A DNA stretch of 61,950 nucleotides, counting the filler. It is 13 parts of 13 records of this genome, joined end to end, with 100 filler letters (N's around TTAATTAATTAA, not from the genome) between each part and the next. Parts side by side here need not be neighbours in the genome. Positions count along the whole stretch, not along the records: positions 43,935 to 50,294 come from SRR9670534_1470; 12 more parts are not named here. One strand, given 5' to 3'. A program made the translations under genes and the position numbers. Positions 8,661 through 59,805 of this stretch are shown piece after piece; the stretch's first letter is position 1, and every line of letters starts with the position of its first letter. The notes below the pieces were generated by a model, which did no database searches, was not told where the DNA came from, and was given only the letters and a program-made list of their open reading frames with translations.

Positions 8661-9394
8661 ATTATTATTATTATTATTATTATTATACTTCAATAATAAT
8701 TTGTTTACTGAACATCAATAAGTAAACATAACTATATTGTTATTTCATGTAATGTATCAACTTTGCTATATATTATTTTGCATAATCCCAATTATACCTC
8801 GCAAGAATTATTTATGCTTAACTACTCCATATTACATTGTTATTAATTATATTGCCAGTCTTCCATAAACGATAGATAGATAAATCTCTGACTGTCAAGA
8901 TTCGTTAAAATGATACAATTATCCCAGTTTGAATTATTAATTAGCCCATATGCTTGTTGACTGTCCTGCTCTACACTGTGCCTAACTTATTTCCATACCT
9001 CCTGCAGATCAGCAGCTACTTTATAATTATCTACATTTCCACAATACATCAATCACTTAACTCAAGATAAATACAAAAGTTCATGTTGGGTATTTATGCC
9101 CATATTTCACACAATTAGCAAAATTATGGGATAACATGCCATAAAATTATGATACTTGATGTATGCCTTGAATGTTCTTTTGAGATGATAAACAAAAAAT
9201 GCACATGCACGCACACGCTCTGCACGCGATAAGAGATTGTCAAATGTGTAAAAGCATATTGGGATGGAAGAAGGTGCCCAGCTTGATGTCACACCCCTTT
9301 AACATTGATAAGATTGACATGGATGGTGCAGTGATAAACCCCAACTACTTCCCCTTGGTGTGATAATTGCTAGATGGGGTAGAGTAGGGCTTAG

Positions 9395-9590
9395 TGGGTG
9401 GGGCTGAGCCGAGACACGTGGCTAACCAATGAGCTTGAAAATTCATTATGGACCAATGGGTTTTATAAATCTGGTTTCCAAGCCAATCCTGCTGCATTGG
9501 CTTTACTTGTTAGAACTGCCTGGTTGCTCTCAATTCTGCCGATAGATCTATCTTTTCCTCGCCTGTCAGTCAACTCTTTTGCACGCTAAG
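9395..9590 (+). promoter_or_regulatory. Putative distal Pax6 promoter and non-coding first exon
   Basis: G-rich box (~9395-9404), E-box CACGTG 9415-9420, CCAAT 9426 and 9453, TATAAA 9464, then a consensus donor AAG|GTAAGT at 9590/9591. Confidence 0.55.
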
Positions 9591-15300: not shown

Positions 15301-18193
15301 ATCCAACTTCTTAAGATTCAGAACCTTTTTGCAAATGCCAATGGTATTATACCATTTGATGGTGTAGAAATCTTGAAACATCTAAGATTTCTATAACAGT
15401 CAAAGGCTGATCCTCCTTAATCATTCACCCTTTTGATTGCCCAATTGAACGAACGAACGAATTATTGAAACTTAATGAGGCTTCAAATATTTAGCAAATA
15501 ATTTGTTAAACTTATAGTAGCACTTTAGCTCAAATAAGCGCATCTAAACTTGTTTTCTCCATGACTGACTTAAAAACATTGAGTTCAAGTAAATGTGTAC
15601 TAATACTTTAAACCAACCAAGATACCTCCAGATTTCCCTGGAAAGCAAGGATTTTTTCAAATAACAACTGAATTTAAGACATATGTATCTCCTTTGCATA
15701 ATTGTTAAGTGAAGCGAGAAGTTGTAGCCATGATTTTAAGAACAATAGAGCCTTGATAATTAGTCCATAAGAGACTACATCAAAAAATCACCTTTGCGTT
15801 AATAATCTGAAGTAGAATAATGAGTGATGGAGAGGAATTTTGCATCATGTCTCAGTAGCTGCCAGCTTTCTAGCTATTTTTCTACCCTTCTCTTTCTCTG
15901 CATATCAATTTAATAAGGGTTTTTGAAAAGACGATGTACCCATGTAATCGCATTAGCATAATTCAGCACCCTTCTCAAATCCTAATTACTTGCTTAAAAC
16001 TCTACCTACCTTAATAATAGTGTAGGTAAGAACTTACTTTAAACCTCATATGATGCCTGAAGCAATAGGATTAGCTTATACTGCAATAGTAGTTAGCCAC
16101 CTTCATAACCCATATGACGTATGATTTCGTACTTGATAATAAAGATTATTAACTCTAAAGCTTTGTCAATTGATGGAACCGCTTTTGAGACCTTTTGAAA
16201 GAATAATATTTTAATTTAGTAATTTGATATTGTTGAAATTTTAAAAATTTATCAAATTTTAAAAATTTACCAAATTTTAAAAATTTGTATAATTTTATTT
16301 AAAAATTTATAAAATTTTATTTTAACATTTTAAAAATTTATCAAATTTTAAAAATGTATTTAAATTTCATTCATTTTTAGTTGAAGAAAAGGATCCAAAT
16401 AATAGTACAAGTAGTGATAATGAAGGTGATGGTGAAGCTGCTATGAGATTGCGCCTCAAACGAAAACTCCAACGAAACAGGACTTCTTTTGCACCTGAAC
16501 AGTTGGATGCTTTAGAGAAAGGTAGCTACGTAATCACCTTTTAATCCGTTACTAATTGACTAACCATCTGCTAGGTATACATATGTGTGTCTTTATTTGA
16601 TCTAATTGCTTAATAATTCTTGTAGAATTTGAACGAACACATTATCCAGACGTTTTTGCGCGTGAAAGATTGGCTTCTAAAATCGATTTACCTGAGGCAA
16701 GAATACAGGTATGGTTTTCCAACAGGAGGGCAAAATGGCGTCGTGAAGAAAAGTTACGTAGTAATAAAATTGATACGGAGAACATGAGTGGTGGTACCAA
16801 CAACTTATCCAGCCATTCAAATGGCACGGCAGGAACGGTACCAAATAGGATTAATGGTGGACCTTTTCAGAGCACAAGTTACAGCCCCTCTTTCAGTACT
16901 GGTTCTCTTGGTACACCACCAAATATGGCTGATTCCTATGGAAGCTGTTATAATCCTTGTGGACTTAGTACTGCTTCTACTGCATGTCTACAGCAACCAT
17001 CAGCTGGTAGTGCTACCAATTATCCTTCTTTGTTATCTGGTAATCAAGATTGATTAGTGATAATAATAATTTAATAAGTTATTATTTGTTGACTAATTTA
17101 GGTGCGTCTCATAATCCGTATGATTCTTTTACTCATTTAAGTGGTTTTCCAAGACCAGCAACAGGAGCATCGTATTCACCGTATAATCATATTACACAGT
17201 CAACACCAACACATTATCCACTTCATGGACATCATCATCATAGCCATCAAGCAGCCAATGGTATGTGTTAATTCCTATATTGACAACAGATGTCAGTATT
17301 GTTCGCTGTCATAGCCTACCTTTAGTGATAATAAGTAGTTTAATGATCGTTTAAATATAGGTAAATCTATAACCGTGAAATTCTATGGTACACTGTATGT
17401 ATATATTATAATAATACTGTTACGTTACTTTATAATGTGTGATCAAGGGCTACGTCCTAAAGCATTGTAGACTCCAATTTCTGATTTGATTAGATTATAA
17501 TGACGCTGATACAGTTGAAGTAAAATCAATACGATAATATTGTACATCATTGTAACATACAATTCTTGCTATATGAAGTACAATGTATTACATGCACCAT
17601 ATTTATATACAGTGCTTATTTTAAAGTATTATGTGAAATTGCTTATATGTACATTGTACAATGTAACGCTGTACATTACGTGTTGCACGTACCGTCGACT
17701 ATACTTACGCATTACATATCTTGTATATAATATTATTGCAGTTTTAAAGTATTAGTTTACAATATAATATCAGTTATATTATTATAAAGTACCATAAGTA
17801 CATTATCTATCATATTACGTACAGACCTCTACTACAGTACACTACGTATATTGTGCGCAGGATGTATTGTACAATTGCAGTTAACTCACTATACGCATAT
17901 CGTATTGTAATCTACGTCGCGTAAATTATGACTGTACTTAACGCTTTCTATGTATAATTGTATGTACGTACTGCAATGCTCATCACATGTATTATACGCA
18001 TAATAGCGTCATATAAAATAAATTACGTTCACTATTATTCGTAGGTTTTGGAAGTATTCCATTCCAAAGAGATCCTTGTGGAATGTCAGATGTTTCATCA
18101 AGTTACTGGTCAAAAATCCAACAAACATATTCATCATCAGTTGACGGTCATTATAATGCTAATAATAATACCAGTAATGGCTCCCTCAAATGA
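12310..18193 (+). CDS. Pax6: Pax6 (paired domain + homeodomain), complete
   Basis: Exons 12310-12322 (MPHK), 12763-13109, 13508-13793, 16381-16521, 16626-17039, 17102-17260 and 18045-18193. Paired domain has the Pax6 signature RILQVSNG. Linker motif MLDRLRMFN, homeodomain LQRNRTSF...[36 protein letters not shown]-terminal SYWSKIQ. Confidence 0.96.
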
Positions 18194-19046
18194 TAATTGC
18201 AAATCAGCATACCAATTCATGTTCTTACATACTTACTACTCAACGCAATCATATCAGGATGTAGAATGTAACCACAATAATATTATCATAATTTGGGCTA
18301 GTTTTCTTCACAAATTCACTGATAAAGTATTATTATCATCACAAATCTTGCCCTTTCTCATCACCTATTGTGTTGTATTATTTAATAACATGATTATTGT
18401 TCCATGTATTATGTAATTTACGTTATTAATAAATTATGCGATTTTTATGTACTTTTTTCTGAACATGACCGCCATTTCTTTAAAGAAAGACTGATTCGAA
18501 ATAGTTTTTGTCTAACTTTTTTATTCATTTTTTAATTGTTTCGTATTTCAATGTACAAGTACGTAATATATTGTATATGATAAATAGAAAAAATATTGTA
18601 TAACTACAATTGTCTGGTTATTATGTATATGTATTGATGAGATTTTTATTATTTGTTGAAGTAAAAATAAAATAACATTTTGTTGACATTTGTAAGAGTC
18701 AAAATGTGACATTTATTAAAAGTTAGCTGGAAAACTTATTAAAACTTAAATTGGCGGTTATTTTACAGAACTAAACAGTCGACATCTTTTAGCCAAAATT
18801 ATCTTATCAAATAGCGATAACTTTCTTTGAATCATTACCATAAGCATCTGATTTGTAGAAACTGTGAATGGATAAAACAGTTCATCAGTAGTGTATTTTT
18901 AAAAAGAGTTCTTGATATTTGGCGCTTATTTTGCAAAAGTAAATTANNNNNNNNNNNNNNNNNNNNNNNNNNNNNNNNNNNNNNNNNNNNTTAATTAATT
19001 AANNNNNNNNNNNNNNNNNNNNNNNNNNNNNNNNNNNNNNNNNNNN

Positions 19047-23369: not shown

Positions 23370-24116
23370 TAGATGTACGGTGCTCTCTTTATTAATAATA
23401 ATAAAATAAGCAAAGGTTGTGATTACGGTGCCACCGCTCAAACCACAAAATTGTCAACGAAGAGAACGTAATGAATATATTCAAATTCTGAATTTCAGAG
23501 GATGTTTTAGTTAAGAATCTAACAAAACAATACATACACATTATATACGCACAATACCCAGGTATGTACCTACCTACTGCAGTACACTACTACATATTGC
23601 CATTGAACTCTTACAGCCATGATGCAACTTGNNNNNNNNNNNNNNNNNNNNNNNNNNNNNNNNNNNNNNNNNNNNTTAATTAATTAANNNNNNNNNNNNN
23701 NNNNNNNNNNNNNNNNNNNNNNNNNNNNNNNGCTGAAAACTAGGTGTCTTATATAATATTTATATGCTATTTATTATATATTTTGCAACATAATTTTGAA
23801 ATTCTAGTAAAAGGTAACCTTTACCTGATAATCCATAATCAATGTTCGTGGAAATTCCACGGTGGAATTGCCCATATGGTTATGGTTGATACTTAACTAA
23901 GTTTGCAGTGTAAAAAAGACTATAAAATGTTTGTGTTTATTTGTGTTAGTGTGATAATTAAATTAGTTCAATTCACAGTCTTCTAATGTCACTTACTTAA
24001 TTTCTACTTTTCTACTGTTATTCTTATTGTTATTTTAGGTTTTATAAATCTTCTTAAGTTTTGTAGCATCTTCTTTTTCTGTAAGATTAATGAATTTAGT
24101 TTAGTGTGTAAACTGC

Positions 24117-29320: not shown

Positions 29321-29546
29321 GTATATCACTTTTAATAATAAACATTATTATTATAGTATTTTATGCCNNNNNNNNNNNNNNNNNNNNNNNNNNNNNNNNN
29401 NNNNNNNNNNNTTAATTAATTAANNNNNNNNNNNNNNNNNNNNNNNNNNNNNNNNNNNNNNNNNNNNAATATATAAAATATCATATAATATAATATACTT
29501 ATAAGTATATTATTTATATGTAAATTGTTGCTTTTTGTCCACTCAG

Positions 29547-31888: not shown

Positions 31889-32113
31889 NNNNNNNNNNNN
31901 NNNNNNNNNNNNNNNNNNNNNNNNNNNNNNNNTTAATTAATTAANNNNNNNNNNNNNNNNNNNNNNNNNNNNNNNNNNNNNNNNNNNNACACCTGAAAGA
32001 CCTTCCTTGTAAGTATTATAAAATGTACATATAATTAGTTCTGCTGCTGTACGCCTTCGTGTAATTTCGGTAAGTACAATAAGAACGCTATAGCTTATTA
32101 AATATTATAATAC

Positions 32114-36728: not shown

Positions 36729-36856
36729 TGTTTCCACACCAAAAGTAGCTAAAGGTNNNNNNNNNNNNNNNNNNNNNNNNNNNNNNNNNNNNNNNNNNNN
36801 TTAATTAATTAANNNNNNNNNNNNNNNNNNNNNNNNNNNNNNNNNNNNNNNNNNNN

Positions 36857-39800
36857 ATTCCACATAAGTAGGCCCAATCCCCTTCATTTGGAGCCACACG
36901 GCAGGGATAAGAAAATTGGTTCTTATTCTATAATAACAATTTTACTTTCCTACTATTTGATTGCTTTTGTTTCCCTTTGCTATTTCCAATACTTTGAACT
37001 TATTATGACAGAAGAAGGTACAGAACCTACTGGTGTTGAAGGTGATGTAATGAATAATCCTATCTATTTGAAGAAAAGAAGAGCTGGTTTTAAAGCATAT
37101 ATCACACAACAAATCAATAACATTCAAAGAAGTTATGATACCAATGAACTTTTAATTGCCAATAAGATCAGTGTTCAAGCAGCAATAAACACCATTGACA
37201 GATATGTTCAAAAAATACTTGAAGTAAGTGAAGAATATCAACTTTTCTTGGATGATGCTGAACTAGAAACTGATATTATTTCCACTGCTGAATTTGAAAA
37301 TGATATAACAACTTTCAAAATGAAAATTTTCGATGTTATCAAACCATCTACTTCAACAACTCATTCAAGTTCTTCTGTTGTTAATAATAATCATAACAAA
37401 ATGGGTTCAAAATTACCAGAGAAAAGACTTCCAATTTTCAAAGGCAATATTTTGCAATGGCTTGAATTTGAAGAAAGTTTTAAATCACTAATAACTGATA
37501 ATCCAACTTTAACAGATCAAGACAGAATTGGCTATCTGTGGGATGCATTGGAAGGTCCAGCCAAAAGGGCAGTAAGTGGTCTAACTAAAACAGGTAAGAA
37601 TTTCCATAAAGCCATTGACTTATTGAAAAAGAGATTTGGTAAGGTAGAGCTACTTAAGGAAGCTTATATTTCTAATATAGTTAAGGCTAGTTGCAACAGA
37701 ATGGATGTAAAATCCTTAAGAATATTCTATGATGATATTATCTCTAATATTAGGTCACTCAATACTTTGGGGCTAGAAGAATCTTCATTTTCTAGTTTTC
37801 TAACCCCTGTAATACTTGCTAAGTTGCCTAGAGAAATGCAAACCCACATTTCAAGAACAAGACGTTTGCTCTCCCCTAATGTTAGTTCAGATGCTTTGCC
37901 TACTTTGACATTGACTCAACTTATGACATATCTTGAACAAGAAATCACTTCATTGGAAGTGCCTATGACTTCATATCAATTTCCTCATGAAAGAACAGAG
38001 GTAGTTCGACAGCATTTTGATCAAAATCTTTCTAGTAGTCATAACAATAGTAGTAATAATAGCTCTACATTAACCAATATGTCAACTTCTATTAATAATA
38101 ACAATAATAATAGACTAAGGCCATGTGTTTATTGTAATAGTCAGCATCCACCTTCTAGATGTAATACTGTAGTATCACCCTATGAGAGAAAACAAATTCT
38201 TTCTAGACAACAATTGTGTTATTTATGTCTTAGACCTGGACATAGTATTCGTAACTGTAATAGTAATTATGGTAATTGCAATTGTGGTTTGAAACACCAC
38301 TCCTCTATTTGTACTAGAGGCATTGTCACTACTCTTGGTAGAGGGAATGCTTCTAGTGCATCTAGAAATAGTACTGATAGTAGTTCAAGAAGACAACATT
38401 TTGATATAACACCACCTTCACAAAGTTTACTTAATGCTTCGAATGCAAACAATTTAGAGTCTAATAGTAATGCTAGTTCTTCTAATAATGTTTCAGAGAG
38501 TACTTCTACTCAAACTAGTGCTGATGCTAGTACTGATACCAGTACTCAAATGTGTGTTTCTACTGCTAATAATGATGATATTGAGTCTAATAATAATAAC
38601 AGTATTGATAATGCAACATTTCTATCAAATATTAGTACTATGTTGAATGAAAACTTGCTATTGTCTAATCGTAAAACCATTATGATGATCTTTGAAGCTA
38701 TAATTTGTGATAATAATGGTAATAATTTAAACATTACTGTTATGCTGGATGATGGTTCTTATTACTCACATTTAGCTGACAGGCTTCTTGAATATTTGAA
38801 CTTAGAAATGCTTCAGAATGCACAGCTTAATCTAGGTGTTTTTAATAGCTCTCAAACTAGTACTTGCAATGCAAATTTGTATGCACTAAGCCTGCATAGT
38901 GCAGATACTAACAAAACATACAAAATGTCAGCTTTTGCTACAAATGTAATTTGTCCAAAAATTATACATTCGGTAGACTACTCTACTATGCAAGACTTGG
39001 TTTTGGGACATCAGATTATCAACACAAAGGCAAAGTCCTCAAACATTGATCTTTTGATAGGTTTGGACTATTACTGGTTGTTTGTAACAGGTAAAAATGA
39101 GCATATAACAGATTCATTAGTAGCATCTGAAACAGTCTTTGGTTGGCTACTAAATGGACAATATAGTTGCTTAGATAACTCTAGTATATCTAATAGTATT
39201 GCTATGAACATTGTTCAATCACATTCTGCTTTTGATACTAACACTATTTCTGATAATAATGATATTGCTTCATTGCTTAAACATTTTTGGGCACTTGAAC
39301 ATGTTGGTATTGTAAATGAGCCACTGTCTCATTATGATGAATTTTGCCAAACAGTTTGCTTTGATAATAATGAAAATCGCTATGTAGTTTCATTGCCTTG
39401 GAAGCCTTGCAAAAATCAGCTGCAAAATAATTTATCTAGTGCAAAAAGAAGACTATTTACTGCAGTGGCTAAAATGCCTAAGTCATTATTGCATGACTAT
39501 GATGATATTCTTGGTGAGTATGAACAACTTGGCACTATTGAGACTTTGCCAATCTCTGCTTTGCAACAAGAAAATGACTGCTTTTATTTGCCACATAGAC
39601 CTGTAGTAGATATGACTAGAACTACAACAAAGATAAGACCAGTGTTTGATGGGTCTGCAAAACCCTCAAAAAATAGCTTATCTTTGAATGATTGCTTGCT
39701 GACTGGTGACAACATGTTACCATTGATCTTTTCATTGCTTATTAAGTTGAGACTATTTTCTTTTATCATACTTGGTGATATTAAGAAAGCTTTTCACCAA

Positions 39801-41654
39801 TTAAAACTAACAGATGATGATAAGCATTATTGTAGATTTCTATGGTTCAGTGATGTTAAACACAAAAAATTTTCAATTTCTGTGAAATGCTTTAAACGCT
39901 TGCCTTTTGGACTTAACTGTAGTCCATTTCTTTGTAATGCTAGTATATACTATCATTTTTCTCTTGCTGAGGAAAATGCATCTGCTTATGATAAACCATT
40001 CTTTGATAGACTAAAAAATTGCTTGTATGTAGATGACTTATGTACTGGAACGTTTCTTCCAAAAAATAATGAAAATGCTTCTGCTGAGGTTTTGAAACTA
40101 ATTAGTCTAGCAAAAGATTGCTTAAAACAAGCAAATTTTACATTGCATAAGTTTTACACAAATTGTCCACAATTAACAGAATATTTAGATGAGTACAATT
40201 CTGGATTTGACTTAACTGGAAACACTACTATATTGGGGCTTAATTGGGATCCAAAAGCAGATACTTTTAGCTTTGATCTTTCATTTTTACATACTAATCT
40301 ATCTTGCACTAACTTGACTAAAAGAAAATTGCTTAGTACAATCTCAAAAATCTTTGATCCATTGGGTTTAATTAGCCCTATTTCAATATCAGGTAAGGTT
40401 TTAATGCAAGAACTCATAAAGGAGAAAACTGATTGGGACTGTGTTGTCCCTAATTCCATATTGCAAAAGTTACAAGTTTGGATTTCAAAGCTAAGTAAAA
40501 CTTTTTCATTTGATAGATATGCCTTGCAAAATGCAAATTTTAAAAAGGTAAGTTTGCATGGATTTGCAGATGCTTCTAAAGATGCTTATGCTTGCTGTAT
40601 CTATGTTGTTTATGAGACAGCAAATGGTATACAATCTAAACTACTTTGTGCAAAAAGTAGAGTTGCACCTATGAATAACTTTTCTATAGCCAGGCTTGAA
40701 TTATTAGCTTGTGTTCTATTAGTTAGTTTATTGTCAACTATTCTACCAATTTTTCAATCTGAGCCAACTTTGAATTATGAAAAATGTTATCTATGGACTG
40801 ATTCTCAAGTTGCTTTGACTTGGATACATTCTAGTAATGTAAAATCATATGGTGTTTGGGTCAAACGTAGAGTATCTCAAATTCTTTCTGTTGTGAATTC
40901 CAATAATTTCATGTTTTGTCCTGGAGAACTTAATCCAGCTGATATTGCCACTAGGCCATTTCAAATGGAAATTCCATTACTATGGCATAATGGCCCATCT
41001 TTTTTGCTTGATAATAACTATCCTAATCAACCATTGTTAACATATAGTTCATCTGCTATTTATGAAATGTGCAAACCTTCAAAAAATACTACTGTAGTTG
41101 ATGAAAATGTACTGTTAGCGCCATCTATTGACAATGAATGTGACATTTTTGATTTTAACAGATTTTCTAGTTACAAAAAACTAGTTCGCACTGTATCTAT
41201 AGTACTTAGATTTATCAAGGCATGCAAAAAACTTCCTATTGACTATGGTACTATCTCTGTAAGTGAACAACAAAATGCTGAAAATGTTCTTTTTAAGCTA
41301 CATCAAAATCTGTTTTTTTCAAATTTATACTCAAAACTTAGTGTTAACAAACCTAGTTCTGTTCTATGGGAACTAAGACCTTATTTGAATGATAATAATG
41401 TTATTATGGTAAAAGGTCCTATTGGTAATGCACAAGCTTCTATACCAGTTAATAATGACTATATTTTACTATCTCAGCACTCCTTGCTAACTAAATTAAT
41501 TGTAGTTGATTGTCATGAAAGATGTTTTCATTCTGGAGTAAATTACACTCTTTCATTTCTAAGACACCGTTTCTGAATTCCTAGAGCTAGAACTTTGATA
41601 AAAAGTATTATACATAAGTGTAAGCTTTGTGCACATTTTTCAAAAAATAGTTAT
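36857..41654 (+). mobile_element. BEL/Pao LTR retrotransposon, internal part (both ends cut by spacers)
   Basis: Single gag-pol frame. Possible LTR end CA at 36885-36886 followed by TT-TGG (PBS-like) at 36887-36891. Confidence 0.92.
37005..41654 (+). pseudogene. BEL/Pao gag-pol with a nonsense codon in the integrase zinc finger
   Basis: LP...LP.F.G...W..F gag region, three Zn knuckles (CVYC..H..C, CYLC...GH....C, C.CG.KHH..IC), protease LDDGS, RT (YLPHRPV, DIKKAF, RLPFG, YVDD), Pao RNase H (HGFADAS, RLEL, WTDS, NPAD.ATR). Then HERCFHSG...RF*IPRAR...CKLC with TGA at 41574-41576. Confidence 0.9.
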
Positions 41655-42021
41655 NNNNNNNNNNNNNNNNNNNNNNNNNNNNNNNNNNNNNNNNNNNNTT
41701 AATTAATTAANNNNNNNNNNNNNNNNNNNNNNNNNNNNNNNNNNNNNNNNNNNNTTTAACACTATCATGTTCAGTAGCATTGAAAGACATAATTCGTCGG
41801 TCACCCGAATATTTACGAATTCGTCATGTATTAACAAAACACTACACGGACATTATTATTAATAATTAATAACAATTATTCGCGGACGATGCAAGTGTTT
41901 CTATGCGTCAGATTTGCGCGGCGCAAATTGCGCCTCATACCGTATTGTACTACAATATTTACCTAAATGTATTCACAGCACGTGGATTTTCGTATTTTAG
42001 TAACTAAGAATTTGAACATAC

Positions 42022-43066
42022 AATAAATATCTTCCATATGCAATACAGTGAGAAGAAATATCCCAAAAAATTAAAGTACATTCCTTTCCATGTCGTGGAA
42101 TATTGAATTCTTTCCTAAAGCAATCAAAGTCATAATTTCTTATATGTACATTGTACAAGTTGTTGAGATATCTAGGTACCTTTGTGTTCCTCAAATCAAC
42201 AACTTCAAAAAACAATTGCCTATTGAATTCCTCGTAAATACCAATTTCTTCTTTCAGAGGTTTAGTGTCATGTAACTGTTCCCAACCTCCACTTCTTATC
42301 CTGTTCCAAATTCCACCAATTCCTGATGGATATTCTTGAGTTCTCTTCATCTTGGCATTCTCTCGTTCCATACCCAACAGTCTTCTCTTTTTGTTTAGCA
42401 TCACGTCCATATTTTGCAGCAATTTCTTTTCCATCTTCAAAATATCAGCGTCACTCACATGACCAACGAATATCGTCATAGAAGTATATGGATAATTTAC
42501 AGCACCAAAACCAGAAAGTAAGGCCATTACCGTCACACCAACTATTCCGACCCGTGAAACTGCCTGCTCTATGGATATAATTCCATATTTTGGAGATAAA
42601 ATCGGGAAAGGATCACCAATTTTCCAAAAACACCAAATGATAAATAACCAAATAATCGTTGTTGTTACCATCAAATTTGCACCTTTTAGACGAACTAAAA
42701 AATTACCTATACATTTTTGATAGTTAAAAGTGAAAGGAAACTATTACCAAATGATATATTGGAGACAATTTGGTGAGCAATGTAAAAAGGTAGGATAAAT
42801 AGCAGAATCAGCAAAATTGCATAAAGATGCAGTTTCCAATGGAAAAATCTCGAATCTTTCTCGAAAATACCAACAATTTCAAAGATTATCAGCTCAAAAA
42901 GGCTACAGGCTAAACTTAGGGTTGACGTAAAGACAAACTGGATACCAATTTGGTGAACTTCGAAATCCCTGAATAGAATGGTGTTACAAAAAATCCACCC
43001 AAACCCAAGGAAGGCCAATTGGGAAATCACCATGATGAAACAATCGTACAATACCAAGGAAGCCAT
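42022..43066 (-). CDS. GPR89: Golgi pH regulator GPR89, 3'-truncated
   Basis: Exons 43066-42748, 42694-42180 and 42114-42022. FELIIFEI, FWKIGDPFPILSPK.GI.SIEQ.VSRVG..GVTVMALLSGFGAVNYPY. Confidence 0.94.
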
Positions 43067-43834: not shown

Positions 43835-44168
43835 NNNNNNNNNNNNNNNNNNNNNNNNNNNNNNNNNNNNNNNNNNNNTTAATTAATTAANNNNNNNNNN
43901 NNNNNNNNNNNNNNNNNNNNNNNNNNNNNNNNNNATAATGATCCAATACTATATTCAGGGAAAAACCATACAGGAAAAAAAACCCAAAAAACATAGTCAA
44001 ACTTTTATGTAAATAATTCTCTATAGATTTTCATGTAGACCTATAAGGGTCCTTCCATTAGGCATGCCTAATGGACCTCCAGGTAAGTCAGTGGATCTTC
44101 AGGTAAGCCAGTGGGCCACCAGGTAGACCTTCCATAGGAGGGTAGGCCAACAGATTGTAATCTTTAAT

Positions 44169-47100
44169 TTACAATAATAAAGGTTTTGTAGAAATGTGAT
44201 CAGATTAAACTTGCCTTTTTACATATATATACGATAATGCTGTTTTTTCTTGTTCATATGTATGAATGGTGCTGGTATGTTGATTAATTCTTAAGCCACT
44301 TGTATTTGCTGTAACTCTGACTTGTTGTTCTTTAAGAACATTTAAGTATTGGTCAAATATAAAATCTTTATTACTAACTCCTTTACATTTAACCATTGAA
44401 CTATCTGCTGTTTTTAAAATATAGTTCTTGGAACTTAGACCAACATAGCCAATACCTTCAGCCTCTAGTTTAAATAATCTAAATATATTATTTATTATTA
44501 ATCATTATTAACAATTATAAAATTTACCCAGGAACTCTATTATATCTCTTGTCTGTAACAATAAAACTTGATTTAACTGTATTATATTCATCAAATAGCT
44601 CAGGCTTTACTATTTTATCAATATGGTCTTCAGAAATATGAAAGTAAAAACTATCCTAAATAAATAACATTAATCTTTAATTCTTTATTAATAATGATAA
44701 ATCTTACAGTATCTGTATGTAGTAATTGATATTTTGAAGAATCCAAATACTTTTGAATAAAATAGTAATAAAATTGCAGCATATGATCTTTTGAATTGCC
44801 ATATACACTTGCCCCTATTTGCAATGGCAACTTATGTGTAATATGAGACTTCAACATCTCAATTTCATAAACTTCACCATAAAGTTGATCTGCTGATTGG
44901 AAATGAGGACTTTTTGCTAGCTTAAAAAACTGGTCATCATTGCTAGCATATTTGACTTCTCTATATAAATCAACTCTTTTTAAGGTGGTTCCATATACAG
45001 AATTTCCAACTAACTAAAATAATATATATTATTATAATATAAATTATAGTAAATATACCTTCCAAGTATTTCCAATAATTTGCTTTGATGAGTCTCTATC
45101 AACTAATTCTCTAGCTTCTTGACATTTTGTAGACAAGAAGTTAAATGGTGCATTTGGAACAAATTCAATTATCTGTGTTATATCATCAACAATTAAGCCA
45201 AGATTAATAAATGTCTACATTTGATAGGTAGTAAATAGTTGGCATTTAGCAGTAAAACTTGATATTAAAGCTTCCTTTTTATTAAAATTGATATCATTAT
45301 CAAGTATAAACTTCTTCATTGTTTGGCCAATATCATCTATAGAAATATTATATACCTTTTTTACAAAAGGTGGATATTTCTCAAACTTTTCATATTCTGA
45401 TGGATTCACATGTAAACTAGCTACTACAAAGCCAAATATTTCTCCAGTTTTGATTTTTGAAATAATTTCATCAATATTGTGATAACTACTATATTTTATA
45501 GTTGCTGGAATACACTTATTCAAGGCTTGCTTTGTAGCTACTGTTCTTTGGAAATTACATTCCCAAATAGTTCTAACAATATAACCAGCCTCTCTTATTT
45601 TTTGTAATCTTGTTAGTGTTTTTTGATATATTTCCTCATCTTGTTCATTTCTAGATCTCCCTTTGATGCAATTACAGGTATGTTGATGATAATAACATCT
45701 ACAATATTAAATAATATAGGAAATCTTAAAATATTTTTAAAATTAAATGGAAATTTTTAAAATATTATACTATTTTTAAAAATATTAGTAAGATTTTTAA
45801 AATATATAAAGATTTTTAAATATTATGACTACTTTTTGTTCAATTTTTACATTTTTCAAATGTTTTTAAAGTAAAATAAATGTATTGAAATTAATTATAA
45901 TTTAATTAAAATTGTATGGAACTTATTTATTTTTAAAATATTTTTAAAATAAGCTAATATTTTTAAAAATTAGTGCGATATTTTAAAAATATTGTATTAA
46001 TTTTAAAAATACTTAGAAAATTTTAAAAATAATATTATATTTTAAAATATATTTAATTATTTAATATTTACCCTAAGAATTCAAACACTGTATTTGTTAC
46101 TTTTTCAAAACCATCTACTGGATAAGCATTGCCTTCAATTGTATAAATTATGTGTTGTTCTGGACTATTAAATTGATGTTGTATGAATATATTTTCAACA
46201 TCCATAATATATTCAAGCCATTCAATTTCTTTGATAAATCTTACATGGTTTGGCAACTGTGGTGCAAAAAAGTCACTTTTTTCTCTGTAAATATAAATAC
46301 CTGTAGGTAATTTATATTTTTCACTTGTTGTATTAAACATATATAAACTATTGGCATCATATCTAAAAAATAATAAATAATTAACAAATTATAATATTTA
46401 TTTAATTTACCCAATAATTTTCTTTGTTACATTATTAGAATTTCTAATACAAGTGACATCTTTTTCTGCATATCTATGAAAAATTACAGATAGTCCTCCT
46501 TGTAGACTATATCTGAACAGGTTTGTTAAATCTTCATTATCAAATAATGTAAAGAATGTTCTTTGATTCATGTTATCCATAACATATTTCAAAGATATTC
46601 CAGAAATGCTTAAGGCATCTTTAAATATATCCAAACCCATATTTTCATAGATTTCTTTCATTCTCTTAATAGCTGTTACACCTGGTTGAACATCTAGTTC
46701 ATTATAATACTTCAACATATCCATGAGATTTGTCCAACCTTTCTCATACCATGTTTGCTTTACAAAGTCATAGTCAATGTCTGAAATAGCCTTATTTTTC
46801 AAGGTACTATAAAAGCTATCTTTGTTAGGTAATACTGTTTCATATAATTTTGAAAAATTTGTAATATATTCATAACAAAAGAAAAATTTTTCTTCATCCA
46901 CATTATAAGCTTTTAAAAATTTTGCATAAGAGAAGCCTGGAGCTAAATAATTTAATAAATCCAAAAACTTTAGCCACTTTGTCTGAATAGTCATATATGT
47001 ATTTCCTCTTTTAATGGTAAATTTGTATTGGTCTTCATTGCTTTCAACTTTATCAAATAGTACTTTGAAAAAACAATTTCTAATTAAATTTAAGTCATAA

Positions 47101-48584
47101 AACTTTGAATTAAAGGCCAATACAATAAGCTGATTTAAAAACTGTTCAAATCTTGGAATAATATTAATAGTTAAATAGTCAATCAGCTTATTATTATTAA
47201 AAACTTTTGCCATTTCTAGCATATTCTTTAAATCCTCAATTATAGTACCATAATTATTTTCTTGCATACAGATATTATATGCTGTTTTACTTATATTCAG
47301 TAAATAATTATAGAATTCTTCAATCAGAGTCAATGGATTTTCATAACAAATAAATTTACAAGTTTTATATCCTGGAACATTTGAACTAATACAGCAAGAC
47401 AATGGTACATGTTCATGAGTATATACTGTATTAGTGAAACTTTCTTCCTCAACTTTCTTCATTCTTGCTTCAAAGTCATAAAATGCAAAGAATGGATAGA
47501 ATTCTTTACCAGGAAATTTCTTATTAAGTAGTACTTCAATATCTTTGATTATATTTGTTGTATATTTAAAAGCTTTTCCAGGATATTTATTACTAATTTC
47601 ATTGTCATCTTTTTCAATGCATTGTTCAAAGTGTTCTTTCATATGATCAGTTCTTGAAAATCCAACCTGACATTTAGGACAAATAGCATTTACTAGAAAA
47701 TTTTGCATATTTTTTATAAAATATACATGATTCTCATGAAGGTAAACACATAAATTCTTGTCAAAATTTTCATTGCTTTTATAAGCATATTTGTAACCAG
47801 TTGAGTTCAAGTTGGCTGTAATTACATAAATATTCATTTCACATGATCTTTCTAAAGGATTAATATCTTCTGGAACTTGAATTCTATTAAAATCTGTCAA
47901 ATTTGTATAACGTTTATATTTTTGAAATAGTTGTTCAACTATTAAATTAAGTAGTCTTAATCTTGATTTAACCATCTTTAATTCTGTAATATTTAAATAG
48001 CTTAATGCCATACAGCGAAACATACATTTGTTATCTGTATACAGAGTTTGCTTTGTTGGATGATAAACTAATGAAATTAACTTTCGACTTTTCATTATCT
48101 ATTTAGGTATTTCATTATTTATACCAACATTATCAATAATTCTCTGCTTATCCAAATAGGTTATCATTACTTTATAGGCTATTAATGAATGTAATTGCCA
48201 TTTAGTACTTGGTCTTTTCTCAAGAAATTTTTCATAGACAGAATCAATGGTAACATCTGTAATTTTATTTAATAAGTCTTCAAAATTACTTCTTGTATAG
48301 ATGTAGTAAGGTTTTTGAAACACTGATGTATTAGTACTTGGTAAAAAACACATGTAAGTTGGTGGATTCTTATGTTTGTATCTCAAAATACAAGCCAATT
48401 GAATATTTATCTTAAAAGAATGATTAATTTTGGCAAATAAATTTTCAATTGTAACTTTGACATCATCAGCCAAGAATCCTTGTGTATTTAAAACACTTTC
48501 CCACAAAACTTTTTGTGTATTCTTCTTAACTGTAAGTACTTTATTATATTTGTGTAATAATTGCTCAATATTTGAAAATTCCAT
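44169..48584 (-). pseudogene. Intron-containing protein-primed family B DNA polymerase of Polinton/Maverick type, three in-frame stops
   Basis: Exons 48584-46411, 46362-46072, 45698-45059, 45013-44708, 44655-44528 and 44478-44169. OTU-like DNKCMFR...ENHVY, C2HC finger, ExoI YDFEA, ExoII FNSKFYDL, ExoIII YNELDV, motif A GYDANSLY, VSR-like insert VDG...EFLGCYYH...IWEC, motif B KLVGNSVYG, motif C DTDS, PGLFKLE, KNY, KCKGV and terminal KRQV..D.IST.PL. Confidence 0.9.
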
Positions 48585-48859
48585 CTAAATAAATATATCT
48601 TATATACTTAATATATATTACAATATTAATAATTAATAAATTACATAGTGCATATAAACAACTATATTAGATTGAATACATTTCTATAGAAACATTTTCA
48701 AAATTGTAATAAGAAATAGAAAATAACAGATAAGAATAGAATTTTAAATCTTTGGGCAAAAAACAAGGGTTACCTACTCTGCTAAGAAAGAATTTTTAAG
48801 TTACAACAATTATCAAGTTACTTATATAGTAATTTAGTAGTGGCTATAATTAGCAAATT

Positions 48860-48980
48860 ACATCATAGCTAATTTTAGAATATGATTTTACAGTTATTTT
48901 TAGAATATGATGTCATAGTTAAATTTAGAAATTAGTGTTATAGTTATATTTAGATAATGATGTCATAGCTAAATTTAAAT
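48860..48980. repeat. Degenerate ~26-bp tandem repeat upstream of pPolB
   Basis: About 4-5 copies of CATAGYTAWWTTTAGAATATGATGT-like units. Confidence 0.6.
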
Positions 48981-49468
48981 AAAAAATCTCTTCATAAAGA
49001 TTCCAGGTATAATGATTCTAGAATTGACAGTATTTGCAAGATAGACATCTTTTCTTATTTTGCACTGTTTTGTACCTACATTAATTATATAAATTACTAA
49101 TATATAATAGAATTACTAATTACTAAATGATATAAATTACTATTAATTAAATAACATTGATTAATGAATAAATACTGTAATATATGAATTAATAATAAAT
49201 AAAGAGCTAATTAATTAATAATATTAATTATTAAATAACAAATTAATAAATATTATATAATTAACACTTATTTACATCTTTTATTTGAGTACATATATTC
49301 TATGGAACATTGTTTGGTTACAGGTATTCATGTCAAATAACAGGTTTGTTTTTATTCAATATTTAAAAGCTTTAAATATTTAATAATATGTTTGAGTGTT
49401 TTGAAGATCTGTTGATTTTTGATTGGTAGCCAAGTGAAGGAAGCTACATTTGCCTACACTAAAAGCAT

Positions 49469-49870
49469 AGGACTTTATGCCTACATACTAGTAATATACT
49501 AGCAATTGTAGGACTTTTGTCACAATTTATAAGTTCCTATCTAATGATAGTTCCTATGTGACATTGCCTTGAAAACCTCCAAGGGCTTTATTACATTTCT
49601 TAAAGATTTATCTTAACAAATAGTGACATCTGTGACGGCAGTCATGCTAAGTTTGCCTAGGCTATACTAGAATAGTAACTTAGTCAAACAGATTTCACTA
49701 TCTTAAAGTTAAAATCTATCTTTAAGATTTGTAATTTAGTGCCTCAAAACACTAGGCTTTAAGGACATTTTGCCTTGAAAAATATCAAGGACTTTTGCCT
49801 TAAAAATTTCAAGGACTTTTGCCTTAGATTATTTCAATGAATGAAATATTCTAAGGACTTTGTGCTACAT
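49469..49870. repeat. Clustered AGGACTTTTGCCT motifs upstream of pPolB
   Basis: Copies near 49469, 49509, 49581, 49761, 49787, 49811 and 49853, three of them in tandem at ~25-bp spacing. Confidence 0.65.
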
Positions 49871-50394
49871 AAGCTCCCTAAGGCTTCTATAGCCATGTAG
49901 CTTTCTTCAAGCTACCTCTGCACAACATTGTTCAATCTTTGATTTAATATGTGAAGTTTTCTTATGATTCTAAATAATATATATTATTAATAATTACATG
50001 TATTAAATAATGATTTACTAAAATTAAATTATTTTAGATTTACCAAAGTTTTCACACATGTAGCCTATTTATAAATATCAAACAATTATGTATTTGATTA
50101 ACTTGTATTAGCATGGAATAACACTGCCATCTATGTGGGCACAAGTACTATTGCCATTATTTATGTTTATTGCAAAGCTTGTTTAGTTGTAGTGATAAGT
50201 TATACTACCAACAGTTATTATCTAAAAAGTATAAGGTGTAAAGTATTATTATTATATTATTAATACTGTTATTATTTATTATTAATAATAATAANNNNNN
50301 NNNNNNNNNNNNNNNNNNNNNNNNNNNNNNNNNNNNNNTTAATTAATTAANNNNNNNNNNNNNNNNNNNNNNNNNNNNNNNNNNNNNNNNNNNN

Positions 50395-50421: not shown

Positions 50422-50522
50422 GTACATATGTATATGCCTAACTTATACATTTACTCTATACAGCATAGACTATACTATGTTTATGCTTTAGTAATGTACT
50501 TATCCTAATTCTTCAGTGTATA

Positions 50523-52941
50523 ATGGAGAAGTCTTTTCAAAAAAGCTTGTACAAAAAATATCACAAATTTTCTGGAATAAATGCTCTGAAGGCAGACTTG
50601 AGAAGTACTATAATCAGTGACTTGAACGGAAGTATAAATAATAGGCCATTAAGATTTGATAAAGATGATCGTGGAACGTTAAAACTTTTATCAGATTTAA
50701 TTGTTCTTCACCATTTGCACCACAGAAAATATAGTTACTCTGAAAGTGTGTTTTTGCCAGAAGCATCAATTTCTAGCAATGATGATGAAGGTTTGTTTTT
50801 AAAATTGATCGATTATCTTGAACTTGATCATGGGTCAAATTGCTATCGTCTTATGAAGTCCTTTTGCGCTGGAAAACAGCCGGTTAGTATGATTGATGGA
50901 TTGCTATCTTTTTTGAATGAGTTTTTGGCTGAAACCACAAAGAATGGCTCATTTTCAAAATTTTCAAAAGATGTTGGTATTCAGGCATCTCATAAAGAAG
51001 ATTTTGGTTTAGTAACCAATACCTCTCGCAATATATCTTTCAGCGACAGAATTACTGCCTTAGAAAATGAATACATTGAGAAAGCTCACACTGCTACATA
51101 TACAGCATCATTTGAGGACAAAGTTCTTGCTTATCAAAAGTATTTGGATGTTGAGTCTCAGAAATTGGTTAAGATTGAGATCGAACGCTTTAAAGAGCAA
51201 GAAATAAGCAAAGTAAAATTTGATGAAAGGAGGAGATATGACGACGAAATCACATCATATAAAAAACAATTAGATAATACATACGAAGTGAAGTTTAGTG
51301 CCCTTGCAGAAAGAGAACGGAAGTTAAGTGATCGGTTAAAAAATGAAAAACGCCAGTTAGAACATGAGCTTCATCTGGAAAGAGAGTTGATATTGCAGAG
51401 ATCTGAAAATATTACCACAAGAGAGTTAGAATTAGGTAGGTTGAAAAACCATCTAGAAACTTTGGAAGAAGTAGTTAAATCAAAAACCGAAGAACAGGAA
51501 AAACATCTAAAGCTGCAGGAAAGTCAAATTTCTGAACGTGAAGTTAATTTAGATGCCATTGTGACCCAAAAGGTTAAAGTTCTACTGGTGGACCAAGATC
51601 GACAATATCAAGAAAAGTGTAAATCACTAGATTTGTTAGAAAGATCTACCCTAAATAAATCGGTTACCCTTGAAAAGAGAATGAAGGAGTATGATGATAA
51701 GCTCGCTGAACTTTCACATCTGAGAGAAGACAACGCTGCATCCAAGCGTCTTATAGGCTCCTTGGAAACTGAACTTTTGAAATGTCAAAATGAAAACACT
51801 TTCAAGGATCAAATTTTGATGAAACATTCAGATTATGATATGGTGAAAGCAAACAATGAATCTTTGCAGCAGAAGGTTCAAGATCTTAACAATTTGCTGG
51901 AACATACCAGGCAAGAACTGCATGCACTTAGGAGGAAACACGAAGAAGGTTTGAAAGAAATTGCATTACAAGCGTCAAAAGAGCCAGTAGAATTATCAAT
52001 TGTTAGAGAACAACTTGCTAATGCTAAAGCTCGATTGTATGAGAAAGAGTTGATTCATAATTTCACAAGCGAACAAAATAGGCAGAAGCTTTCGGACGAA
52101 ATTGAAAAGTCCCGTTTTATGGAAATCGAAGTTGAACGTGAAAAACAACGAAGAATTGAGTTGGAGAAAGGGTTTATTGCTCTCAGAAATCAAGTTGTTT
52201 CACTACAACGTATTGGTGAAGTAACAACAAGAATTCCACCTGCTATACCAGAACTTCTAGCTGCAATACAGCATTCGCAAACCAATACTCACATCCCTAT
52301 TCCTAATATTTCTTTTGAAAAAAGCGCAAAGCATTCAAATATTCCATTGGCACACCCTGTAGATGATCAAAAAGACCCGACGGTAACTTATTACATAAGT
52401 GTGCTATTTTAGAATATTATGGTAAGAAGTATATGGACCATTGGTGCATGTTGTACTGTAATAAAATGTAATACTGTATTGCACGGTGTACACTGTACAC
52501 CATGACATGGTAGTACAATGTATACGATATTATGTCATATACTGTATGCCAAGGCACAGTGTGCCTTGTGCTCATACCAATTTGCACATATGTACGTACT
52601 ATGCCATGTATTGTACAGTATACACACATGTCTTTGGTGCGGAGTGTGTAGAAGTTCTAAAGTAGAACTACGTCTGTACGCACGCCAATAAGTTATTGAA
52701 AAATAAGTACATAGCGTATGCAATACTATATTATGTGTTACATATAATGTGTAGTACAGTCTGTACTACGTGTATAATAATAACGTATTGGGTACAATAT
52801 ATTCAATTCAATGGTACATGATGTACATGATGTCATCATATAACTTATGTTATGTCATATAACTGGTATATTTATTTATTTATTTGACAGGCTTTACAAT
52901 CTACGTACTTCCAGCAAAACCGAGATTGACGGTGCATAGCA
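50523..52941 (+). CDS. OFD1: OFD1 centriolar satellite protein (LisH + coiled coil), 3'-truncated
   Basis: KSLYKKY...GINALKADLRSTIISDL...LIVLHHL...YSYSESVFLPEA...FKEQEISKVKFDERRRY aligns with the recalled OFD1 N-terminus. Exon 50523-52382, next exon from 52891. Confidence 0.82.
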
Positions 52942-53066
52942 NNNNNNNNNNNNNNNNNNNNNNNNNNNNNNNNNNNNNNNNNNNNTTAATTAATTAANNN
53001 NNNNNNNNNNNNNNNNNNNNNNNNNNNNNNNNNNNNNNNNNGTAATGCTGATAAATTATCACTTAC

Positions 53067-55775: not shown

Positions 55776-55910
55776 CATACATATTTATAAATATATATAT
55801 ATATATATATNNNNNNNNNNNNNNNNNNNNNNNNNNNNNNNNNNNNNNNNNNNNTTAATTAATTAANNNNNNNNNNNNNNNNNNNNNNNNNNNNNNNNNN
55901 NNNNNNNNNN

Positions 55911-59061: not shown

Positions 59062-59805
59062 NNNNNNNNNNNNNNNNNNNNNNNNNNNNNNNNNNNNNNN
59101 NNNNNTTAATTAATTAANNNNNNNNNNNNNNNNNNNNNNNNNNNNNNNNNNNNNNNNNNNNGATTGACAAATGGAAATATTATGTATTCTATATTTATTC
59201 ACATTCAAATTGCTTGGTAGCCTATTACACAAGAATTTAATAAATTATTTATATTAGATATTTAATAAATTATTTGTATTATACAAAGCAGTAAGAATGG
59301 CATAATATGCCAGGCATATTATTGAATATATAAATATATTAAAAATGTAATTTATAAATAATAGTTAGATTTATTTATATTTTTGTTACATCTAACTGTT
59401 TTTATTTCAGCAAATGATTTCAGGACAGGATTTATTTAATATAGTCTTGATAAGTTATGTTTTTAATAAAATGAACATGAGTTTTATATATTTAACAAAT
59501 ATTTTTAAGGAATTTGTATAAGTTATGACTTTATTGTAAGTTTATAACATTGTAAATAATATATAGTGCCCTCAAAAATAGTATCATAATATATGTTCTA
59601 TGTAATATAATAAAATAAATAAAAATTATGTAATACTTTTTAGAAAAATCTTTTGTTGGTTGAGGGTGTTTGCAAAGAAGTTTACAACTCCTCAGGTACA
59701 AATGGATTAATCTATATGATGTAAAGAATTAAGAATGAAATTTGTTTTTAGTATATTGTTTTTATTAATAATAATGTTAGATATTATAATATTTTTTATT
59801 GCTAG

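Follow-up and report, generated by a model that had tools for sequence, protein, structure and literature searches.

A probable molecular fossil of a Polinton-type DNA polymerase gene, interrupted by five spliceosomal-type introns, in an animal assembly

Polinton/Maverick DNA polymerases that carry a Vsr insert, named 'pPolB2', have been described from marine molluscs and from the marine nematode Trissonchulus latispiculum (Jeong et al., 10.1101/2023.08.22.554363), and the Alpha adintovirus/Polinton polymerase has been described as OTU-pfam03175 (Starrett et al., PMC8502044). The core genes of Polintons/Mavericks and adintoviruses are treated as intronless and are hence surveyed with prokaryote-style gene callers. 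Intact vertebrate Mavericks were reported to be intronless, short 'introns' in their gene models being treated as insertions, and most endogenous vertebrate copies were found to be eroded, with polymerase genes fragmented by stop codons (Barreat and Katzourakis, PMC8097293). Nematode Maverick core genes were likewise reported to be intronless, with introns only in cargo genes (10.1101/2022.07.12.499685), and the methods of another study state that endogenous viruses 'do not contain introns' (PMC10120064). In dinoflagellates, introner transposons were found within Maverick-Polinton-like proviruses (Gozashti and Corbett-Detig, 10.1101/2025.03.18.643946 / PMC12166617). Here we describe a polymerase gene of the Polinton/adintovirus type that stands alone on a contig of 6,360 nt (positions 43935-50294), one of 13 contigs in a 61,950-base window, which is the whole stretch of DNA analysed. 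The gene is interrupted by five introns of the spliceosomal type and also by three nonsense codons. It is probably an endogenous copy in decay, derived from a polymerase lineage that relied on splicing by the host; in other words, a molecular fossil and not a working replicase.

The layout of motifs resembles that of pPolB2: a predicted protein-primed family B polymerase with Exo I-III, Pol A-C and a Vsr-like domain between A and B, with named relatives from marine invertebrates. The pPolB2 genes are described as continuous, however, and the two mentions of 'intron' in that report concern group I introns, not spliceosomal ones (10.1101/2023.08.22.554363), whereas the present gene has five spliceosomal-type introns and three stops. 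As with the adintovirus polymerase (PMC8502044), homologues match pfam03175, a conserved N-terminal D..C and H are found, as expected of a Cys protease, and relatives adjoin genes for an integrase, an adenain-like protease and capsid-sized proteins; on the other side, sequence tests on the family members did not reproduce the OTU likeness, and our gene has no virion or integrase genes on its contig, contains introns and is broken. It resembles the degraded vertebrate Mavericks (PMC8097293) in being broken by stops, but differs in its canonical splice sites, exact excision and lack of frameshifts. Spliceosomal introns inside Polinton-like elements of a nuclear genome are also found in the dinoflagellate proviruses (10.1101/2025.03.18.643946), where the introners are copies of recognisable transposon families, in protists; here four of the introns are of 45-52 nt and the setting is an animal. 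Our own repeat comparison with the other contigs covered intron 2 and both flanks of the gene. Full-text literature searches, which did not extend to supplements, yielded no account of an animal Polinton polymerase gene with spliceosomal introns, and one may exist.

Excision of the introns leaves a coding sequence of 3,813 nt, made up of 1,268 sense codons, two TAG and one TAA (1271 codons). All five introns lie within the 3' 43% of the gene, in phases 2, 2, 0, 0 and 2 (Table 1). The original prediction, made from the letters alone, had placed five GT-AG introns on the minus strand, and their coordinates and lengths were confirmed; each begins with GTA and ends with TAG. The predicted joins were also read directly after excision: IIG/YDANSLY, EFLG/CYYH, WK/LVGNSVYG, DT/DS and PG/LFKLE (a slash marks the exon junction). 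Calculated from the contig's own dinucleotide frequencies, the chance that five of five inserts have both GT and AG ends is 8e-14, or 5e-9 when three placements are allowed per end. The inserts show a T-rich tract before the 3' TAG, and four of the five fall in a tight size class of 45-52 nt.

The alignments of homologues abut at these sites. At the 373-nt gap, consecutive residues (n and n+1) were found on the two sides in 10 of the 15 full-length homologues aligned to the contig, and in one homologue (P0002) the residues were consecutive across introns 2, 4 and 5. Among 174 proteins, no residue was missing between the flanking alignments in 56 of 70 cases at intron 2, in 12 of 12 at intron 4 and in two of three at intron 5, where the remaining homologue had one extra residue. 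Introns 1 and 3 have lengths divisible by three, and the reading frame continues through them; the in-frame stops of intron 1 face gaps in 98-143 of 146 alignments, and those of intron 3 in 93-102 of 102. The eight coding pieces match a profile of 40 homologues in order, covering positions 15-1261 of 1273. At introns 1 to 4 the profile positions on the two sides are 710 and 713, 799 and 802, 1019 and 1020, and 1120 and 1121, and the split Gly codons fill the first two gaps. All eight pieces map in one continuous frame on the locus of a relative (L010). Because the homologue and profile coordinates abut, the interruptions behave as exactly excisable introns, and we conclude that they are, as judged by their sequence, genuine introns of the spliceosomal type (U2-type GT-AG).

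Could the five interruptions instead be AT-rich insertions that accumulated, unspliced, in an already dead gene? The copy is dead, the inserts are extremely AT-rich, and intron 2 is mostly a minisatellite of a kind found in the host, all of which would fit. But the GT-AG ends in five of five cases, with GTA at the 5' end and the T-rich tract and TAG at the 3' end, and the size class of four of the five argue against it. Random insertion would be expected to add or delete coding bases, and none was gained or lost at the five sites in either the homologue or the profile alignments, excision being exact to the base. In addition, GT-AG introns occur at these or neighbouring sites in relatives whose exons lack stops, where they must be removed to keep the frame. 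We regard unspliced insertions as very improbable. A self-splicing intron (group I or II) was also considered for the 373-nt insert and was rejected, because Rfam covariance models at the gathering threshold gave no match in 43935-50294 on either strand.

Removing the five introns had been said to restore the frame, and this part of the original prediction failed: two TAG codons and one TAA remain (Table 1). In 122 homologue alignments the position of TAG no. 1 holds Y (45), F (29), H (14), W (4) or a gap (16); at TAG no. 2, 113 alignments show K (56), R (25), Q (17) or N (6); and the TAA is opposite L (30), A (13) or another residue in the 74 alignments spanning it. This TAA comes 12 codons before the next in-frame TAA, which the original prediction had taken as the end of the gene, and C-terminal homology continues past the first of the two: the tail SDHISTKPLLL was aligned to the homologue stretches ..NDGITTLPL and ..ADGVTTSPL, which stop two residues short of the C-termini of the homologues. 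Each of the three stops is one base change away from a common codon. With three nonsense codons at sense positions, this copy, as read, therefore cannot encode a full-length polymerase even if spliced, and it is a predicted pseudogene or at best a source of truncated products. An alternative genetic code in which TAA and TAG are sense codons, as in ciliates, was rejected, because only two TAG and one TAA occur in the 1271 codons of a gene of 27% guanine plus cytosine (GC). A reassigned code is excluded also by the two TAGs, which face different residue classes, and by the presence of a TAA where homologues end.

The gene might nevertheless be alive, as an active element or a domesticated gene, if the stops were assembly or sequencing errors, strain alleles, or codons bypassed by read-through or RNA editing. 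Every Exo and Pol motif residue is intact, there is no frameshift over the 3813 nt, all five pairs of splice sites are preserved, both internal stops are TAG, homology runs on beyond the terminal TAA, and intron-bearing relatives with intact exons exist. Set against these are three independent nonsense codons at places where 74-122 alignments have sense residues. Substitution errors at three sites would be unlikely in an assembly, no single recoding fits both a TAG facing Y/F/H and a TAG facing K/R/Q, and the rarity of TAG and TAA argues against a reassigned code as stated above. A live gene thus seems unlikely to us. As to a host-domesticated pPolB, which had been offered as one option, nothing favours domestication, and the copy is broken by three stops.

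The assignment to the Polinton/adintovirus type, in an animal assembly, held up on homologues, on motifs and on the module genes of relatives. With the 562-residue piece of exon 1, 2,902 homologues were retrieved at E<=1e-3, the best at 38% identity. Identity to the relatives ranges from 27 to 47%, the highest being 47%, so that there is no close kin; the named relatives are marine invertebrates (Pecten, Branchiostoma and Apostichopus). The search with polymerase models that had been proposed as a check came out in two ways: none of the eight window pieces matched a Pfam polymerase model at E<=0.1, whereas the profile of 40 homologues matched them at E values from 1e-152 to 8e-8. Because the window's pieces have no Pfam match, the family assignment rests on the homologues. 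DNA_pol_B_2 was matched above the Pfam cut-off by four of seven homologues, and at E<=0.01 by 14 of the 41 alignment members, which comprise the 40 homologues and the window piece; the latter gave no match. The top named cluster in the Atlas has PF03175 in 80% of its members (score 0.93), and the nearest named clusters are PF03175 clusters of eukaryotes.

From N- to C-terminus the order of domains is a conserved N-terminal region, a Cys/His domain, a C2H2 zinc finger, a 3'-5' exonuclease, motif A, a Vsr-type insert, and motifs B and C. In the 562-residue piece the exonuclease motifs are Exo I D208/E210, Exo II N330/Y334/D335 and Exo III Y465/D469; in alignments of 15, 55 and 41 sequences, the residues of Exo I (DxE), II (Nx3(F/Y)D) and III (Yx3D) show either no variation or at least 90% conservation. 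The motifs YDANSLY (A), K/LVGNSVYG (B), HTDT/DS (C) and SSKNY (KxY) can be read with the introns set aside and align to the homologue motifs. A C2H2-type zinc finger (C140, C143, H156, C160; about 47681-47619) follows the N-terminal Cys/His domain and matches zinc fingers in the PDB at E 5e-8; its four residues, too, vary little or not at all among the homologues.

An OTU-like N-terminus and a VSR-like insert had both been claimed; the Vsr part is borne out at family level, and OTU was matched by no sequence test. Over the stretch ..vfqfhGCyyHgheC...ikEC, the family profile aligns to the Vsr structures 1ODG, 1VSR and 1CW0 with E values of 9e-5 to 1.2e-4. The corresponding stretch in the window is ..VFEFLG/CYYHQHTC...IWEC, in which the His before the G of the hGC motif is replaced by Leu; because this core motif lies at the 373-nt site, intron 2 cuts it. 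A PHROG endonuclease family matches the Vsr-like stretch in two homologues, PHROGs gave no match to the window's own pieces, and Pfam Vsr matches five of 41 members, all below the cut-off where scores are shown. In the Cys/His region of the 562-residue piece, D22, C25 and H124 are conserved. Pfam OTU matched none of the 41 alignment members, and none of 10 members even at E<=10. The N-terminal profile gave nothing significant against the PDB; three of the six chains at E<=10 were fragments of 170-187 residues of 'RNA-directed RNA polymerase L', aligned from Cys to His at non-significant E values of 0.5-1.8.

Relatives were also collected from metagenomes, where the best 80 of 308 confirmed loci were kept, and all locus counts below refer to these. 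Among viral contigs of IMG/VR, 39 pattern matches were found and none was confirmed as a relative. In two loci (L066 and L033) the polymerase adjoins genes for a chromodomain-bearing rve integrase and for a capsid-sized protein of about 440 amino acids; L066 has in addition a Peptidase_C5 protease (22.2 bits against a cut-off of 21.3), a weak match to an Adeno_IVa2-like ATPase, and a dUTPase. At least one module gene was present in 27 of the 34 loci of at least 9.5 kb, and an integrase in 21 of the 34, counts that are not independent, since many loci are near-duplicates. Because relatives adjoin integrase, ATPase, protease and capsid-sized genes, the polymerase family is, by gene content, of the Polinton/adintovirus type.

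The introns had further been said to match those of the host in size and composition. This is only loosely true: the size ranges overlap, and GC is far lower in the polymerase introns. Eleven host introns, placed heuristically at the nearest frame-consistent GT-AG between homologue alignments, are 41-548 nt long (median 95) with 19-37% GC, whereas the polymerase introns are 45-52 nt, plus the one of 373 nt, with 6-13% GC. GC at third codon positions (GC3) is 18.8% in the polymerase coding sequence and 26-40% in eight host exons, and the polymerase contig, at 25.0% GC, is the second lowest of the 13. These differences, in a window that is an unordered chain of contigs, would fit an origin of the contig not in the animal but in an accompanying eukaryote whose introns are tiny and AT-rich, such as a symbiont, a parasite or a food organism. 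However, the contig with an animal Ariadne-type gene has 23.5% GC, and a BEL/Pao retrotransposon in the window has, like the polymerase gene, a low GC3, of 21%. Host introns can also be short: the host Golgi-pH-regulator gene has an apparent intron of about 41 nt (42707-42747, placed heuristically) and other host introns are of 64-65 nt. Given the ~41-nt intron, the host would be able to process introns as short as those of the polymerase gene. Finally, the AT-rich minisatellite that makes up most of intron 2 resembles an AT-rich minisatellite of 18-22-nt units at 16236-16364, in an intron of a PAX/homeobox gene (paired box 12747-13136, homeodomain 16601-17053). The identity is 69-84%, with E values down to 6e-9, both arrays being of low complexity; the likeness is weak evidence, which favours the same genome for the polymerase contig and the animal contigs. 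A foreign origin of the contig appears quite unlikely, slightly less so than unspliced insertions.

Taken together, these data point to a decaying Polinton-type copy from a spliced polymerase lineage. Splice sites persist only where splicing matters, and the lineage would therefore have acquired its five short U2-type GT-AG introns at a time when the gene was expressed by way of nuclear transcripts. Introns 1 to 4 lie in or near motif A, the Vsr core and motifs B and C, and ancestors of the gene would thus have made polymerase only through nuclear transcripts spliced by the host. Intron 2 would later have been inflated by AT-rich minisatellite of the kind also seen in a host intron, and the copy would also have taken three single-base nonsense changes, the stops themselves being observed directly, which would leave truncated products at most. 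If intron 1 were left unspliced, translation would end at once (GG/gtaa reads GGG TAA), and a product consisting of the N-terminal region, the Cys/His domain, the zinc finger and the exonuclease is a possibility. The earlier proposal that expression depends on host splicing may thus be kept for the gene lineage and its ancestors, but not for this copy, in which three stops remain after splicing. The adenovirus DNA polymerase is a related protein-primed family B enzyme of a nuclear DNA virus, and its mRNA is produced by host splicing. In adenoviruses, splicing attaches leaders to a coding body that is largely uninterrupted; it is not known to cut through motifs A, B and C, nor is the enzyme known to have an OTU or a Vsr region. 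The adenovirus enzyme is a precedent for a spliceosome-dependent replicase of this polymerase kind.

Several observations weigh against this interpretation. Despite three stops, there is no frameshift in 3.8 kb, and all catalytic motifs and all ten splice-site dinucleotides are intact. Indels are thus fewer than expected of long neutral decay, which may mean that the gene was broken recently or that assembly or strain artefacts account for some of the stops. The introns are shorter and far more AT-rich than the 11 host introns, and the coding GC3 lies below that of the host exons. No integrase, ATPase, protease or capsid gene was found in the 6.36-kb contig or in the rest of the window (best E 0.3), and the window's own pieces reach no Pfam polymerase, OTU or Vsr model, single exons giving chance-level matches only. 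Splicing at this locus is moreover predicted from the DNA sequence. Inverted repeats found on the contig are low-complexity AT matches only, and the contig ends lie close to the gene, 270 nt past its 3' end and 1.7 kb before its start.

Introns were also found in relatives. A split-alignment scan, after which the junctions were read, gave 18 GT-AG introns in 10 of the 80 loci: one each in L040, L042, L043, L044, L058, L059, L064 and L078, three in L073 and seven in L060. Scan hits in L001 (621 nt), L075 (537 nt) and L079 (100-118 nt) and an extra stretch in L059 (270-294 nt) are not counted, their splice sites being unverified, and L052 was rejected as intron-bearing because it is split by a single stop. 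The expectation that such genes are typically intronless thus agrees with three reports (PMC8097293, 10.1101/2022.07.12.499685 and PMC10120064), but not with the introns in these 10 relatives. In L040, L042, L043 and L059 the exons are stop-free and the frame changes across the intron, and splicing would therefore be needed for a full-length product, an indication that introns of this family can be functional. The exons of the partial loci L044 and L058 are also stop-free, and stops or frameshifts are present in L060, L064, L073 and L078. L040 and L043 carry module genes too, which indicates that their intron is borne by an element.

The positions of the introns, read by eye in the numbering of homologue P0022, are close in different loci. 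Before motif A, this gene alone has an intron (G800, phase 2); in motif A, introns occur only in other loci, at codon 805 in phase 2 (L073, L058) and codon 809 in phase 1 (L060). The Vsr region is split at G889 in phase 2 here and at codon 879 in phase 2 in L060. In motif B the junction is K1109/L1110, phase 0, in this gene, L1110/V1111, phase 0, in L059, L064 and L078, and within G1112, phase 1, in L040, L043, L044, L042 and L060. In motif C the site T1211/D1212, phase 0, is identical in this gene and L073, and L060 has an intron in D1212, phase 1. At PG/LFK the intron lies in G1285, in phase 2 here and in phase 1 in L060, one base away in that Gly codon. Elsewhere, introns were found only in other loci: G779, phase 1 (L060), after E989, phase 0 (L073), and G1095, phase 1 (L060). 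Three of this gene's five introns thus lie within 3 nt of an intron of another lineage, two of them within 1 nt. Random placement gives at least three of five within 3 nt with p 4.5e-5 over the alignable gene, or 4.6e-4 over the 3' half only, values to be read with the caveats that positions were read by eye, that detection is biased to conserved regions and that only 80 loci are included. In most cases the exon base preceding the intron is G.

Trees of the exonuclease-palm region were built with FastTree from 227 rows (the window piece, 153 of the 174 proteins and 73 of the 80 loci; L060 and L078 were dropped) and, as a quick run, with IQ-TREE from 55 rows picked to thin near-duplicates. The intron-bearing rows are scattered over the trees; in the IQ-TREE tree six changes of the intron label are needed, of which at least five are forced by well-supported branches. 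A phase-1 intron interrupts one Gly codon of motif B in at least two separate clades (L040/43/44 and L042), and also in L060, a locus not placeable on the trees. Deep branches are poorly supported. The window polymerase groups with a clade of L066, L070, L052, L040 and L043 (SH-aLRT 86).

These results raise the possibility, which we put forward tentatively and hold for rather less than probable, that Polinton-type polymerase genes were recurrent targets of entry by spliceosomal introns, with a preference for sites around motif A, within motifs B and C, and at PG/LFK. If so, the pattern would represent site-specific parallel gain of introns, or transfer of introns between co-resident elements, in a virus-derived gene; or else an old, vertically inherited intron-bearing polymerase lineage spliced by its hosts, of which the five-intron copy would be a relic. 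The clustering is unexplained, the options being parallel gain at favoured sites, exchange between co-resident copies, and old introns with small shifts and many losses. Vsr-bearing Polinton polymerases were already known; the new part is this cross-lineage pattern of intron positions, which is worth following up. If it holds, it would be a compact natural case for where and how new introns arise. With a five-intron polymerase and one to seven introns in each of 10 of the 80 relatives, surveys that treat the core genes as intronless would split or miss part of the diversity, and some lineages of virus-like elements would have to be transcribed in the nucleus and spliced. The locus itself, a dead copy on a short contig, is best annotated as a pseudogene.

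Some individual loci showed further features. L059:5351-9678, on a 9.9-kb contig, is an apparently intact polymerase gene of two exons (5351-8846 and 8929-9678) separated in motif B by a GT-AG intron of 82 nt; the 5 kb upstream of the gene contain no integrase, ATPase, protease or capsid gene, and a reversed fragment of a polymerase C-terminus lies at about 2814-3017. Similarity between L059 and L064, both intron-bearing, is confined to the polymerase, with no wider synteny. L060:1935-6517 is the most intron-rich relative seen, its seven GT-AG introns of about 100-180 nt all lying in the 3' half, and it contains several stops. L073:4838-5896 and L058:608-1673 are about 65% identical in nucleotide sequence over 1.1 kb upstream of the polymerase, and the two loci have the motif-A intron position in common despite about 67% exon identity, which suggests that the intron is old and has been stably retained and that a gene upstream is conserved.

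Table 1. Features of the polymerase gene, the spacers and other mapped genes in the 61,950-base window (positions count along the window; profile, 40-homologue family profile)
Feature	Position	Strand	Remarks
Exon 1, first part	48102..48584	(-)	ATG and 161-codon conserved N-terminal region; profile 15-154, E 2.3e-20; homologues align throughout
In-frame TAG no. 1	48099..48101	(-)	within conserved sequence; cuts the first 161 codons from the rest of exon 1
Exon 1, second part	46411..48098	(-)	562 codons + 2 bases; profile 166-710, E 9.8e-153
Intron 1	46363..46410	(-)	48 nt, phase 2 (GG/A), gtaaat...ttttag, 6% GC; just before motif A
Exon 2	46072..46362	(-)	291 nt; motif A (YDANSLY) and first half of Vsr-like insert (..VDGF..FEFLG); profile 713-799, E 9e-21
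Intron 2	45699..46071	(-)	373 nt, phase 2, gtaaat...ttgtag, 10% GC; splits Vsr core motif G/CYYH
AT-rich minisatellite	45721-46055		unit of ~20 nt; most of intron 2
Exon 3	45059..45698	(-)	640 nt; remaining Vsr-like insert (CYYHQHTC...IWEC) and stretch leading to motif B, includes TAG no. 2; profile 802-964 (E 9e-37) and 969-1019 (E 3e-11)
In-frame TAG no. 2	45215..45217	(-)	between Vsr-like insert and motif B
Intron 3	45014..45058	(-)	45 nt, phase 0 (AAG/TTA), gtatat...ttttag, 7% GC; inside motif B (K/LVGNSVYG)
Exon 4	44708..45013	(-)	306 nt; motif B (LVGNSVYG) to first half of motif C (HTDT); profile 1020-1120, E 1.4e-31
Intron 4	44656..44707	(-)	52 nt, phase 0 (ACT/GAT), gtaaga...atttag, 13% GC; inside catalytic motif C (DT/DS)
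Exon 5	44528..44655	(-)	128 nt (DSFYFH...NRVPG); profile 1121-1155, E 8e-8
Intron 5	44479..44527	(-)	49 nt, phase 2 (GG/A), gtaaat...atttag, 8% GC
Exon 6	44205..44478	(-)	274 nt including TAA 44207-44205; LFKLE..., SSKNY (KxY-type motif), ...YVKRQV*; profile 1173-1261 of 1273, E 1.8e-23
In-frame tail beyond premature TAA	44169..44204	(-)	SDHISTKPLLL; ends in second TAA 44171-44169
Twelve 100-nt spacers (N44-TTAATTAATTAA-N44)	8561-8660, 18947-19046, 23632-23731, 29368-29467, 31889-31988, 36757-36856, 41655-41754, 43835-43934, 50295-50394, 52942-53041, 55811-55910, 59062-59161		
BEL/Pao retrotransposon polyprotein	36857-41576		1,572-codon frame, open from contig start; stop at 41576, ~80 nt before contig end
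Golgi-pH-regulator gene	41997-43066		on another contig than the polymerase
Coiled-coil open reading frame	50469-52412		on another contig than the polymerase

The 13 contigs of the window are 2.1-10.3 kb long and are chained through spacers made of 24 runs of exactly 44 N around 12 copies of TTAATTAATTAA. Because the spacers join unlinked contigs, gene order across them and the genes adjoining the polymerase contig are uninformative on the polymerase's context. Animal genes on the other contigs include the PAX paired box and homeodomain, histone H2A, a protein kinase, a C-type lectin, an Ariadne-type IBR protein, a sodium:solute symporter and a ryanodine-receptor-like gene. The ryanodine-receptor and Golgi-pH-regulator pieces have at most about 46-55% identity to any named animal, and from its gene content the host lineage of these contigs is placed as animal, and no more narrowly. 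The BEL/Pao frame matches Peptidase_A17, RVT_1 and DUF1759.

The 1.7 kb upstream of the polymerase start has no open reading frame of more than 53 codons and contains several tandem repeats, among them 48845-48981 (25/50-nt unit, 2.8-4.4 copies) and 49761-49826 (24-nt unit, 2.7 copies), which could be subterminal repeats of the element or promoter debris. About 80 nt beyond the polymerase stop, on a contig that otherwise has 25% GC, a GC-rich 20-nt unit is repeated in 2.7 copies (44072-44125); it does not occur elsewhere within the window, and it could mark the edge of the element or be part of another gene.

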